Source of the DNA: Paraspadella gotoi
Lineage: Eukaryota > Animalia > Chaetognatha
Length of the DNA: 64,000 nt
Direction of reading: 5' to 3'
Assembly (NCBI GenBank): GCA_051294375.1
Contig: CM119265.1
Location: forward strand, 6,081,309 to 6,145,308
The position numbers and the translations under genes were made by a program. Below, one piece after another: positions 174 through 28,335 of the stretch. Each line of letters opens with the position of its first letter. Within the stretch, counting starts at the first letter, position 1. The notes below the pieces were generated by a model. The model was not told where the DNA came from. It searched no databases and saw only the letters and a program-made list of their open reading frames with translations.

Positions 174-3100
174 ATGGCTTTACAAGGGGTTGAAGAGATG
201 AAGGTTCCGCCGAACTGTAAGGTAGTATGAATTGTATTTTGACATATTTTTACTATTTATTATTATTGTATTTTATGATCTAACGTTCTTCTCGTCAGTC
301 CCTTCTCGAAGACGACATATCCAAGGATGAAATCATCAGGAGGCTCAAACTCATCGCCAAGGCCTTCCAGGAAATGGGCCAGGATGATACGGAAAAGTAC
401 CCCGACCTCGCTCATCACTTGGCCACAGAATTTTACATGGATCATCATTCGAAAGATGTCAAGCTTTTGGTCGCTTGTTGCATCGCTGATATTTTTCGGT
501 TGGTCAAATTTCTATCTATGATAAGATTTCCCGATCGTATTATTTATTCAAAACATCCATATACCTAAATGGTATATCTAACTTGATAGTTTTTTAATTC
601 TGTCTTGTCTTTTAAATAATATTTCTTTATCAGTATCAACGCGCCTGAGGCCCCCTACGTTGATCCTCTCCACTTGAAGCACATTTTCATGTTCATCATT
701 TCGCAATTGCGCGGACTGGAGCACACGCAGAGTCCGCTATACAACCGATACTTCTACCTTTTGGAGAATCTCGCTTGGGTCAAGTCCTTTAACATCTGTC
801 TGGACTTGGAGGACAACCAGGAGATATTCTGCAATCTCTACAAACTTATCTTCTCAATCGTCGGAGACTCTCACAGCGTCAAAGTCAAGAACTTTATGCT
901 TGACATGATGTGTCCCTTGATTACAGAAGCAGATATGGTCTCCCAAGAACTTCTCGACGTTATTTTGTCCCAGGTGGTTCAAAGATCATACTTATTAGTT
1001 AATGTATCATCGTCTTATTCTCTCGTTTTACACCATTTTCAAATCCAAAAAAAAGATTGTGGTTTTAAAATGTATTTATTAATATTTTGTGCAGATCGTC
1101 GGCCCGGCTAAAAAGGCCAACAAACACGCTTGCGCGCTCAGCAAAGAATTACTAAAGAGAACTGCGAACGCTATCGAACCCTACATCCAGGGTTTTTTCA
1201 ACAACGTACTAATTTTGGGAAAAACTTCTGAATCTGAAGTCTCCGATTATTTGTACGACTTGATCTATGAGCTGTATCAAGTATGTTATTAACGATTTAA
1301 AACAATTTTTGGAGATTCCTCATCAGCGTAACTTTTGTTTCGCCTTGATATTTACAGATAGCTCCCACCGTCTTGAACGCAGTTCTTCCACAGCTTGAAT
1401 TCAAGCTCAAATCCAGTGAAGACAGCGAGCGGAGGTAAAAACGAATAAAAAATACTAATTTGTTAATGTTTTCTTTAAAGGTTTAATATAAATACCTTTG
1501 TTGACATTGTTTCTAATAGTAACTAAAACCAAAAAAACTTGAACCATAGATCGGTGACGAAATTATTGGCGCGCATGTTTTCCGATTTGGGATCGCAGTT
1601 AGCTACCCAGAATCCTCCTTTGTGGTATTGTTTTCTTGGTCGCTTCAACGACATTTCTCCAGGTAATAAGCACGTCAAAATTTTATTATTTAATAAGATA
1701 AATTTTAGAGGATGAATTGTTAAGATTTGTTACCTGTTGTGTTGCGTGTTTATAGTTGATAATTGATAAATGATGACAAACTGCGCAAAATCTGAGCGCT
1801 CCGTTGTTTTTTTCGCCCGCTTGGGCTTGAGAAAAATCACGTCGAGCTCATGATCTTATCTTTCTCTGAATTCTTCCGCAGCACGTAATTTCCTCTTTGA
1901 TTATTTTTGCTCAAATCGTTTCATGAATTAATTTCTCTCGTTCAGCCGTACGTATTATCTGCATCCAGTTTTCACTCCATTTTTTGCTGAATCAACCGGA
2001 GTTAGTCAAAGAGATCGCAGAACCCTTGAAGGTAAATCCCACCCGCCCTGTTTACAAACGAAAATACAATCCACGATCAAGTACTTCATCGACTTATGGT
2101 TTTAGGCTCGTGGTCACGATGCGGAAGAAAACGTACGCTGGGAGGCGGTCTTGTCGATCGTCGCCGCCGCCAAAAAGGATTTCAAGTGCGTCCCCGACGA
2201 GATTCTGCAGGTCATCAAAGAGAGAACTCTCGACAAGCGTTTCAAGATTAGAAAGGAGGCGTTGCAAGGCTTGGGTATGTCGCCCTTATCGTAATGAAAA
2301 GAAATTTCCATTACTGACATGCCCTGAATGTTTTGTTCGCGATGGATGGATAGGTCATGTCTACAGACGTGTCGTTCATGCCGACGAGCCCGATGCCAAA
2401 GATCAGAAAAGGGTCTCCTGGATCCGAAACAAAATCATGCATCATTATTATCAGGTTGTTTGAATTAAATAATAAATACGTATTGATTTATATTTTCTCC
2501 GTCGATACATAAGCATTATTGCAAACTAATTTTGTTTAATAGGTTAACATCGAGGATAAACTTTTGGTGGAACGATTGGTCACTACTTGCCTCGTTCCTT
2601 ACAATTTCCCGCCCGAAGAGAAACAAAAAAAGCTCTTTGAACTCTATGTCAGCCTCGATGAAAACGCTCGTAAGGCCTTCGGCGAGATGTTCAGGTATTG
2701 TCTCGGTTTGTGGTTGCCGTTTATACTTACTACGAAATTATTCCCACCTCCTTTGTCAGATGTCAGCACATGATGCGCGAATACACAAAGCAGTTGTTGG
2801 AAGACGCCGCCGATACTTCGCAGTCGGCGACGGAGGAAGAAAAAGTCGAGAACGAAAAGACCCTTACGAGAACCTTTATCTCCATCGCGCGCAACCTGGC
2901 AGACCCCATGCGCACTCAAGATCACATGAAAAAGTATGACTCAAAAGAAGATACTATTGAATTAGTTTTGCGCCAAGTAATACTAATATTTTTTTTTCGA
3001 GGTTCCACGAATTACTGCGCTCAGACACCCAAATGCAGAATCATCTCCACACCATACTTGCTCTCGAGTGCACAGTACGACTGGCAGAAGAATGCGGGAG

Positions 3101-6100
3101 AGAGATATTGCGCAAGATGGGAAATCCCACCACTACCAATCTCTTTTATCACTGCATAAAGTAAGACCTTACGAGCGGAAGTGTTTATCAACGCGAATTG
3201 AACGCTGTTAATTCTTTTTTTTTTTTTTTCAGAGCTCTTTTGGAACGAATCTCTCCCGTGCTCGTCGACAAGCCCAATTTGTTGGCTCTTCTTCGCCTCG
3301 TTGACAACGAAATTCGCGGAAATCGTGAATTGAACGCTGTTTCATCTCCCGGCAACCATGGTCTGCTGGGAATGCAACTTTTACTGGCTCTGGCCACGCC
3401 CTATCCGGGCGCCTTCCGAAACGAAGAGTCCTTTGGGTGAGTCAATTTTCAGCATTTAACCACAAACGAGGTTCGCGTTTGGGGAGTTTGCTTAAAGCCA
3501 ATATAAAAATTATTTGACTCAGGATTCTCCTCGGAATTCTCAAACAGAAGCAATCGGAGTTGCAAGATTACTCTTTACAAATCATCAGCCTCGTCGGAAC
3601 CCAGTTGCAACTTATTTTCCCGAACGTCTCTTCGCAGATGTTTCCTATCCTTCAAGATAAGATCAAAAATGGAACTCCGAGAGGTGATGATAAAGCTTTT
3701 TTTTCCGAAAAAGTTTAATTCCAACTGTTTCTTACTCAACCTCTCGACAGCTTCCAAGTTCTCCATTCGCGCCTTTGCCCAAATCTACGAAGGCCTGGCA
3801 GAAACGATGTTAGAACCTATTTTCGCGCTGGTCAAAGACTCCCTTTCCCACGACAACCCCAATTTGGAGACGCTTATTTGCGCTCTTGGACATCTCACTC
3901 TTGCCTGCCCTGAAAAGTTTGGGCCCGACATGAAAGGCATAGTCGCCAGATTCATCGTCAAGGAGATACTCATGCAAGACAGGTTAGGCGATCTAATTTG
4001 TTTCTTGTGAACTCCCAGGTGTTTACAGATTTATTATCGAGGAAAAAATATATATTGGTTGTACCAATTTCATAACACGAAACTATTTTTAGAACCCCCG
4101 CCAATCCCGAAGACCCGAAGAACACTCAGTCCTTCGTTCAGCCCGAAAACCTTTCTCGAGAGACGAAACTTAAGATTCAATCCATGAAGATGCTCGCGCG
4201 ATGGTTGTTGGCCATCAAGGGCATGCACGGGGCCAGGCAGTCTGGTAAATAAATAAAAATGTTTCTCGTGTTGTTATTGATTAATATTAACAACAATCTC
4301 GGCATTCCTGAATCCAGGCCAATCTACTCTTCGTCTGCTTCACACCATGATTCTCCACGAGGGTGACCTTATGGAGCGAAAGCGAATTCCCAAGGGCGAG
4401 TTGGCGGCCCTGCGTCTCGTCGCCGGCCAGACCGTTTTAAAGCTCGCTACCGAAAAAATATACGAGCATCTTATTGATCACGTGAGTATTACGGCTAAAA
4501 TCGGTGTAGAAAAGTATTGATGATGGTCGCCTGATGACATCACTGCGCAAATCTGATACCGCCGACGTTCTTTTGTTTTCATCCTCGTCTTCCGTTTTCG
4601 ACGTCATCGGTGTGCGTTTTGATTTTTCGCGATTCTGCGGATTGTTGACGCGATCCAGATGTCGTCGATTTTGAAGTGACAGGATAGAATCGAAGAACTC
4701 CGGTCATGATCTCGCTCTTTTATTTGAAACTGAGTACATTTTTTGCTCTTATGTCATTTGTCATTTTCTTAACTTTTTTTAATTGGAAAGATTTCTTTCT
4801 TAAAATTAGGACAAATTCCAAGTGATGGCGCTTCTCATCAACGATCCGTCGAACGACGTCAGAACTCGCTTCATGAGCAAACTCCACAAGGGCCTCATGT
4901 CTCTTAAGCTGCCGCTTCAGTACCTTTCCATATTCTCTCTGTCCGCTAACGACCCTGTCAAGGAGAACAAAATCCACGCCAAACGTTGTCTAATTCAGGT
5001 AACGGGACATATTGTACTTTTAAGCTGTATGCTCTTACGACTCAAGAATTAACGAAATATTCTTTTATTTTGAAGAACATCACCAAACGACGGGAGATGA
5101 TCAAGATGAACAACTCGGCGGCGACATCGATGCCACACATCCTCCCTGATTACGTTCTCCCCTACACCATCTTCCTCCTCGCCCACGACCCCGATCTGAC
5201 GCATCATCGCGATGTCAACGCTCTCAAAAACATTCAGGACTGCCTCTGGTTCATGCTCGAGCCTCTCATGAAGAACGAGAGTTACTCTTACAATTTTTTC
5301 AGGTTGCTTGTCTTAAAATAAGAAGCTTAGCATTTCGTCAGCTACAAGTAACCTATTCCAAAAAACTATTCTAGAAAAATGATCGAGAACATAAAGCAGT
5401 GTCGGGATGCCACGAAACCGAATGACGTCGAGGCAAACAACAAACTCTACTGCGTGTGCGACTTGGCGCTTCACCTCATTATGAACAAACCCCACTCCAT
5501 TGTTTTAAAGGTTAGATTTTTTTATAAGTCACTTGTAGTTTGTTTGTTTCTTGTAGTTGCGATAGATGAGTGTAATATATGTAACTCTACTTTTAGGATC
5601 ATCCGGTCGATCCAATCTTGCCTAAGAGACTCTATACTAGAAGCGATAGCGACATTCCCAACACCAAAATGTATCTGCCGACGGATTTCATGGGTAATTA
5701 ATAATTATTTACGTATTTTTGGGATGGGATTTTATGATTGTGAACATAGGAATTTTTTATTTTTATATATTTTTATTTACCAATGGCAATGTATTATTTT
5801 TCTAATTAGGCGGAACGAAAACCCCAATTTCTCGGTCAACGAGAAGAGATGAGGACAAAAACTGGCAAGGGCTCAGGGTTAATCAAGGCTCTGTTCTAGC
5901 GAACACGAAAGTAAGAGCTGTTCGAAAGTCAATAGATGTAGATGTTTTTTTTATTTTTTTATTTACATAGATAATTATTGCGTAATTTATATATCTATTT
6001 TACAGGAAAGCGCCGCTTTTAGTTACACCGGTTCTTCAAAGACTTATGGCAAATTGCTAAAGGAAGAGAACGAGAGTAAGTTGGAAAGTGGAATTAGGAA

Positions 6101-8160: not shown

Positions 8161-8853
8161 ATGGCGACCTTAGGATTGCCGGTTCCCGAAGCCAACGTTC
8201 TTTCTACTGAGCCTGAGGCGTCCATCTCGATGGACGGGTCTCCCTTCTACAAGGGCCGCCTCGTTGTCGCGGAAAGTCGTCTCATCTTTGTCGTCCCCCC
8301 CGGCGAGACTCTCTCCGTCGACTACAACAACATTTGCCTTCATGCCGTCGAATCCGCCAATGAGACATTCTCCAAGTGTATTTTTCTTCTTCTCAATTCG
8401 AACCATGGCGAGACCGAGGAAGAAGATGATACAGAGGAAGAGGATGAGGCGGAAAACCCACTCGAGAAAATTATTAAAGATAAATCTTCCGAGTCTTCGC
8501 CTCACCATGGATTGCGCGAGAATGTCACGTCGATTCGTATTCTCGTGCCGGAATCCCACTTGATTAAGATTTACGCCGACATCACCGATTGTGCGGTTTG
8601 GCACAACCAGGAAGACGATGTCAGCGATGAAGAAGAAGACGAGGAACAAGACGAATTCGATTCTGAGGAAAACGAGGATGAATTGGGCGAGAGCGAAGAT
8701 TCGATGGAATTAGGTCACGTGAACGTCGCAATGTCCAACTCTTTTCCCGCCGACGAAGACATGACTTCGAGCGGAAGGCGAATCCTGCGTCATCTCGAGT
8801 CCATCATGGTTCGCGCCGAAAGTAATTTGCCCGACCTTGGACTGCAACACTGA
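8161..8853 (+). CDS. CLNS1A: Methylosome subunit pICln (Voldacs/PH-like domain), intronless
   Basis: GRLVVAESRLIF...LSVDYNNICLHAV...KCIFLLL, an acidic tract, IRILVP..LIKIYADITDCAVWH, a second acidic tract and C-terminal ILRHLESIM follow the pICln layout. Confidence 0.85.
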   Translation: MATLGLPVPEANVLSTEPEASISMDGSPFYKGRLVVAESRLIFVVPPGETLSVDYNNICLHAVESANETFSKCIFLLLNSNHGETEEEDDTEEEDEAENPLEKIIKDKSSESSPHHGLRENVTSIRILVPESHLIKIYADITDCAVWHNQEDDVSDEEEDEEQDEFDSEENEDELGESEDSMELGHVNVAMSNSFPADEDMTSSGRRILRHLESIMVRAESNLPDLGLQH

Positions 8854-28219: not shown

Positions 28220-28335
28220 TGTCAGAAGTGGGATTCGAACCCACGCCCGCATTCGCGGACCAGAAATCTCGGTCTGCTTTTGCAGATAAGCTTAGAGCTT
28301 GAGTCTGGCGCCTTAGACCACTCGGCCATCCTGAC
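28220..28335 (-). tRNA. tRNA-Leu(CAA) with a 32-nt intron (28266-28297)
   Basis: GTCAGGATGGCCGAGTGGTCTAAGGCGCCAGACTCAAG[intron]TTCTGGTC..GTGGGTTCGAATCCCACTTCTGACA, followed by a T-run terminator. Confidence 0.96.

Follow-up and report, generated by a model that had tools for sequence, protein, structure and literature searches.

Two putative intronic box C/D RNAs in a PDS5 gene with U91-like guides predicted to target adjacent nucleotides of U4 snRNA

Two elements resembling the U4-directed U91 (mgU4-8) RNA were found in separate introns of a PDS5 gene within a window of 64 kb, which is the whole stretch of DNA analyzed here. We consider it reasonably probable from the features described below that the first, copy B (4514..4737, forward strand), is an intronic guide of the U91 (mgU4-8) type that would pair with nucleotides 4-14 of U4 snRNA and direct methylation of G7, and that its twin, copy A (1770..1869, forward strand), would serve nucleotide U6 of the same snRNA. 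The components of this reading differ in strength: copy B is very probably a real C/D RNA gene, U4 is probably its target as predicted from the guide, and we favor G7 with moderate confidence as its main predicted site. Together, the two copies likely represent a U91-like guide that was duplicated and whose predicted site is shifted.

The exons of the host gene of both copies match the Pfam family PDS5 (PF20168), and among the matches listed the nearest PDS5 relatives are those of annelids, molluscs, and arthropods, at no more than 77% in one exon and at ~52% over 1036 residues, which suggests a protostome invertebrate as the likely source. Copy B lies in a phase 0 intron of 328 nt (4482..4809, forward strand) and copy A in a phase 1 intron of 283 nt (1663..1945, forward strand), which rank first and second by length among the 17 introns listed, compared with 65-135 nt for the remaining ones. 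Both splice joints, including the GT..AG joint 4481-4810 of the copy B intron, are present in run X9, which is presumed to be RNA and shows such joints, none of the runs listed being on record as RNA. The intron 4482-4809 is absent from the spliced contig of this run, in agreement with an earlier sequence-only reading of the window that had placed copy B in a PDS5 intron. Runs X10 and X11, from related organisms with exons ~80% alike, match the PDS5 exons only. A short repeat within a PDS5 intron (4040-4075) is matched by many X8 and X9 contigs with loose ends. Just 3′ of PDS5, an acidic open reading frame of 230 residues extends without interruption (8161-8853, forward strand); we presume that it resembles pICln/CLNS1A, a snRNP assembly chaperone. 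Elsewhere in the window (28220-28335, reverse strand), a tRNA scores 49.8 bits with the Rfam tRNA model. It has a long variable arm and a long insertion in its anticodon arm and is probably a Leu tRNA with an intron; none was reported by ARAGORN run in bacterial mode.

Copy B, a predicted box C/D RNA of ~210-225 nt, was delineated on the forward strand by its sequence, boxes, and hairpin fold. Box C (TGATGA, 4532..4537) precedes box D′ (CTGA, 4553..4556) by 15 nt, likewise in copy A, and this spacing is 15-18 nt in U91 and in the metagenomic look-alikes described below. Between the two boxes lies the guide CACTGCGCAAAT (4541..4552). D′ is followed by an imperfect, unbranched hairpin of 147 nt (4558..4704) with 53 pairs, of which 11 are G.U and none of these consecutive. 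Box C′ (ATGATCT, 4706..4712) is the same heptamer as in copy A and in the consensus of Rfam snoU2_19, and box D (CTGA, 4730..4733), preceded by unconserved sequence, lies 76 nt upstream of the 3′ splice site. Copy B has the box C/D class features of terminal C and D, internal D′ and C′, and a target complement of at least 10 nt directly before D′ (11 pairs with human U4). The segment between D′ and C′ folds with -57.4 kcal/mol (z -4.48), none of 200 shuffles being equally stable, and the whole element (231 nt) gives a z of -2.37. The anatomy proposed by the sequence-only reading was recovered at the stated positions, including the two outer and two inner boxes with the guide (starting at 4532, 4541, 4553, 4706, and 4730), the six stem pairs (4558/4701, 4567/4693, 4581/4681, 4598/4663, 4605/4658, and 4613/4648), a hairpin estimated at ~145 nt, and the distance from box D to the 3′ splice site of the X9-supported intron. 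The hairpin occurs once within the 64-kb window, and its origin from a transposon or repeat was rejected on this ground.

The 5′ end of copy B is uncertain because two C boxes are present; the 5′ flank of the upstream C-like box (TGATGA, 4518..4523, forward strand) pairs weakly with bases 3′ of box D (duplex of -3.9 kcal/mol). As a terminal stem, which is weak or non-canonical in both copies, copy B forms weak duplexes with either C box and copy A practically none. Copy B begins 36-50 nt into the intron. In intronic C/D RNAs, box D is typically situated ~70-80 nt upstream of the 3′ splice site, and the 76 nt measured in both PDS5 copies are inside this range.

Copy A had been overlooked by the sequence-only reading, which described copy B alone. 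It consists of box C (1770-1776), guide (1777-1791), D′ (1792-1795), a hairpin of 54 nt (1796-1849; z -3.44), C′ (1850-1856), and D (1866-1869). The two copies have the boxes, the guide, the 15-nt C-to-D′ spacer, and the splice-site distance in common and are otherwise little alike. The word CTGCGCAA is found twice in 64 kb, each time in a PDS5 intron. Likewise, the window contains two 10-nt complements to U4 nucleotides 1-20 that end at most 3 nt from a CTGA, and these are the two PDS5 copies; the same test on 300 Markov resamples gave a mean of 0.013, with one complement in four resamples and two in none.

Pairing was computed against the 5′ end of human U4, as given by a primer in PMC4338353, and the U91 loop sequence was that of a probe in PMC5612246. 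With this human reference, the copy B guide forms 11 Watson-Crick pairs with U4 nucleotides 4-14, the complement claimed earlier from the sequence, and the pairing presumes UUUGCGCAG in this animal's U4. The copy A guide forms 10 pairs with nucleotides 4-13, with a mismatch at guide position 2, and the core at nucleotides 4-13 common to both pairings is UUUGCGCAGU. By the guide rule stated in PMC8162545, the fifth base before D or D′ faces the modified base. For copy B this is C4548, opposite U4 G7, and for copy A the fifth base is opposite U4 U6, in both cases on the human U4 reference; the same calculation for human U91 returned C8, its established site. The copy B guide contains one extra A relative to U91, so that its D+5 target is G7 instead of C8, and the copy A guide contains two, leading to U6. 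The outcome of a G rather than a C register is independent of numbering and presumes that the U4 of this animal keeps the human core. Human U4 is known to be methylated at C8; its sites in PMC7960923 include neither G7 nor U6.

Methylation at both position 5 and position 6 is documented for some D′ guides, such as yeast U18, snR13, and U24 and several in Arabidopsis (PMC8053127), and the exact U4 site is therefore not settled by sequence alone. Position 6 of the copy B guide is opposite C8, the established human site, and copy B could be a plain functional equivalent of U91 that methylates C8 through this position, alone or together with G7, the register shift being only apparent. We regard this as rather improbable: in the cited position-6 cases position 5 is modified too, and copy A and two of the look-alikes (L034 and L074) could reach C8 only through position 7, the latter two pairing through position 2 and leaving no slack. 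G7 stays our preferred prediction for copy B.

It is far less probable still that copy B is an ordinary snoRNA for rRNA or another RNA with an incidental match to U4. The best pure Watson-Crick run of its guide was 8 in 48 eukaryotic rDNA-bearing loci (145,311 nt), in which full 18S, 5.8S, and 28S were confirmed across three loci. The rDNA compared comes from other eukaryotes, not from this animal, which leaves this alternative its small share, but nothing in these 145 kb is comparable to the 11-12 perfect U4 pairs formed at the same site as in U91. The D-box guides are unconserved, and their rRNA matches are wobble-rich only. Forty-eight contigs of bacterial and archaeal species genomes (L125-L172) carry eukaryotic 18S, that is, contamination.

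A scan of metagenomes with the guide pattern, which permitted the C8 register, covered 15 of 64 parts and yielded 120 loci. A recA-type context was recognized by pattern in 83 of these loci, and both of the two that were checked matched Pfam RecA, indicating bacterial coding matches; another 33 were rejected (nine examined in full). The other four, located on animal-like contigs, were kept as apparent relatives. They were chosen partly by U4 likeness and comprise two related pairs, equivalent to two independent cases; none is in PDS5, and tblastn with three PDS5 proteins against the 120 loci gave no match. Two are in the G7 register (L098 and L026), two in the U6 register (L034 and L074), and none in the C8 register. 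L034 and L074 occupy an intron at an equivalent position in eIF4B-like genes (recognized by homologues of the host exon for L034 and by flanking-exon likeness, with no Pfam match, for L074), possess box C′, and have a box D separated from the splice site by 78 and 85 nt, respectively. Their guides form 12 of 12 pairs with U4 nucleotides 3-14, including a G opposite U4 C3, a base unspecified in the search pattern, and the block from box C through the guide to D′ is the best-conserved part of both introns. In L098, a terminal stem and a D box accompany the hairpin (z -4.87). Its homologue L026 (104 of 156 columns) lacks box D, the sequence continuing into an unrelated reading frame; this contig may be chimeric. 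In viral contigs, the pattern scan produced four matches, none with a downstream C′/D pair of the type sought, and the U4 and 18S patterns produced none.

The host gene is not fixed, being eIF4B-like in two other animals, and so the link to a cohesin-regulator host suggested by the sequence-only reading is without weight. The long hairpin, which it had treated as a scaRNA trait, is strong in copy B, but its length is unconserved, ranging from ~35 to 147 nt among the look-alikes and copies. In both window copies, a word TTGAT-A/G-AT is located 14 nt 5′ of box C (1755-1776 and 4516-4537), and a doubled TGATGATGA is present in L098 and L026. The D-box guide regions of L098 and L026 have ATCGAG in common, possibly a second guide of that lineage which is lacking in the window copies.

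The weak terminal stems and the position 2 mismatch of copy A would be expected if one or both copies were decaying duplicates without a working RNP. This is very unlikely given that all four boxes are intact in each copy, that the spacing of 76 nt is equal, that the hairpins are significant, and that the registers are matched in other animals. A small probability, slightly higher than that of decay, is assigned to a non-methylating role in which the RNA binds the 5′ arm of U4 (or U6-directed guides) and serves as a chaperone or sink, similar to the 'regulatory RNP' proposed for human mgU4-8. The presence of three registers across animals suggests that pairing outweighs the site, and processed human mgU4-8 is nucleolar and its 5′ loop contains eight bases present in U6, according to PMC5612246. 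Against this, each register recurs in unrelated hosts, and the guide is flush with a perfect D′, the usual geometry for methylation.

Expression of the methylation guide that we favor is hinted at, weakly, by X9 cover inside copy B, where the depth is 3.2 and 2.6 in two bins compared with 146 for the mRNA. This cover would extend from ~4547-54 to ~4706-12 with a depth of ~4 if a single contig is assumed. No cover is present over copy A, and the other introns in 1560-4960 have no residual depth except at the 4040-4075 repeat, which speaks neither for nor against expression. The contigs show neither ends nor strand, and the cover in copy B could come from unspliced pre-mRNA or DNA. In the proposed mechanism, the PDS5 pre-mRNA would first be spliced at both host introns, as the spliced X9 contig shows. 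The RNA would then be trimmed from the intron and bind the C/D core proteins, as the boxes and the 76-nt spacing suggest, and the loop before D′ would pair with the free 5′ arm of U4, as computed for human U4, before U4 anneals to U6; this arm is the strand later engaged in U4/U6 stem II. Fibrillarin is predicted to methylate the base opposite the fifth guide position, G7 for copy B and U6 for copy A, and the hairpin would be an insert of variable length between D′ and C′.

Tentatively, we propose that stand-alone intronic U4 guides form an ancient, mobile family in invertebrates, in which the U6 and G7 registers were kept; this animal would have both in one host and methylate two neighboring bases in the U4 arm of U4/U6 stem II, neither of which is modified in human, and the vertebrate C8 register would be a third one, later fused into SCARNA17. 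This predicts 2′-O-methyls at U4 nucleotides 6 and 7 in invertebrates, within the U6-pairing arm. In a RiboMeth-seq study, 20 end nucleotides were excluded from scoring and inspected by hand, and methylation at nucleotides 6 and 7 may thus be easily missed. If true, the proposal would reveal a guide that shifts its target in one-base steps on one helix and would suggest that the U4 half of SCARNA17 descends from an intronic RNA with a single domain. Its scope is a detail of snRNA maturation; the mechanism itself is not new.

Among known guides, relatives of U91 in invertebrates may already have been described, for example by Marz et al. (2011), who reportedly compared unusual scaRNAs across animals. 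Our literature search, largely confined to the main text of open-access papers, found no description of the guide sequence or of guides for U4 G7 or U6. A comparison with Rfam gave no family at gathering score and no U91/SCARNA17 model even at an E-value of 10, a comparison with these models having been suggested by the sequence-only reading. Weak matches to snR40, ceN40, and archaeal sR families were rejected, as only the boxes and a few bases were common. The top weak match of copy A was snoU2_19 (RF00494, the 5′ domain of SCARNA9; 17.8 bits against a threshold of 39, E-value of 1.5), which has the same scaffold of AAAU-CUGA, stem, AUGAUCU, and CUGA and a guide for U2 G19 that differs from the guide of copy A. 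In Arabidopsis, A67 is the only U4 methylation site shown. In Drosophila, mgU4-65 is the sole U4 guide among seven earlier scaRNAs, and of seven new ones the six named in the headings of the same paper include none for U4 (PMC3884663).

Vertebrate U90 and mgU2-47, as described in PMC4041459, are intronic RNAs with a long apical hairpin and a snRNA target, like copy B, but have a different target and a stem of GU/UG dinucleotide repeats, the Cajal-body signal, that copy B lacks. Neither a (GT)3 run nor consecutive wobble pairs nor the Drosophila CAB motif within two mismatches was detected in copy B. The scaRNA label given to it earlier is unproven because the known Cajal-body signals are absent, and we lean slightly against the RNA being a Cajal-body resident. 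An intronic U4 guide was already proposed earlier in chicken, where GGgCD77, predicted computationally in intron 11 of RFWD2 (PMC2653536), is a C/D RNA as is copy B but has its guide at the 3′ box and C8 as its predicted site.

The closest known counterpart is human U91/mgU4-8, the 3′ domain of SCARNA17 (mgU12-22/U4-8). Copy B is like it in the C-guide-D′ order, seen in the probe of PMC5612246, and in the U4 region, with guides spanning U4 nucleotides 4/5 to 14/15; the U91-like layout claimed by the sequence-only reading stands in this order, but not in the register, which the extra A displaces. The C-to-D′ spacer is 15 nt in copy B compared with 17 nt in U91, and the D+5 sites are G7 in copy B and U6 in copy A compared with C8 in human U91. 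The human RNA is a capped Pol II two-domain transcript (PMC4041459), consistent with the independent transcription claimed for it earlier, whereas copy B is intronic and stand-alone. A U12 domain as in SCARNA17 would have no room in copy B, which begins so close to the 5′ splice site, and the 147-nt insert between D′ and C′ further distinguishes it from U91.
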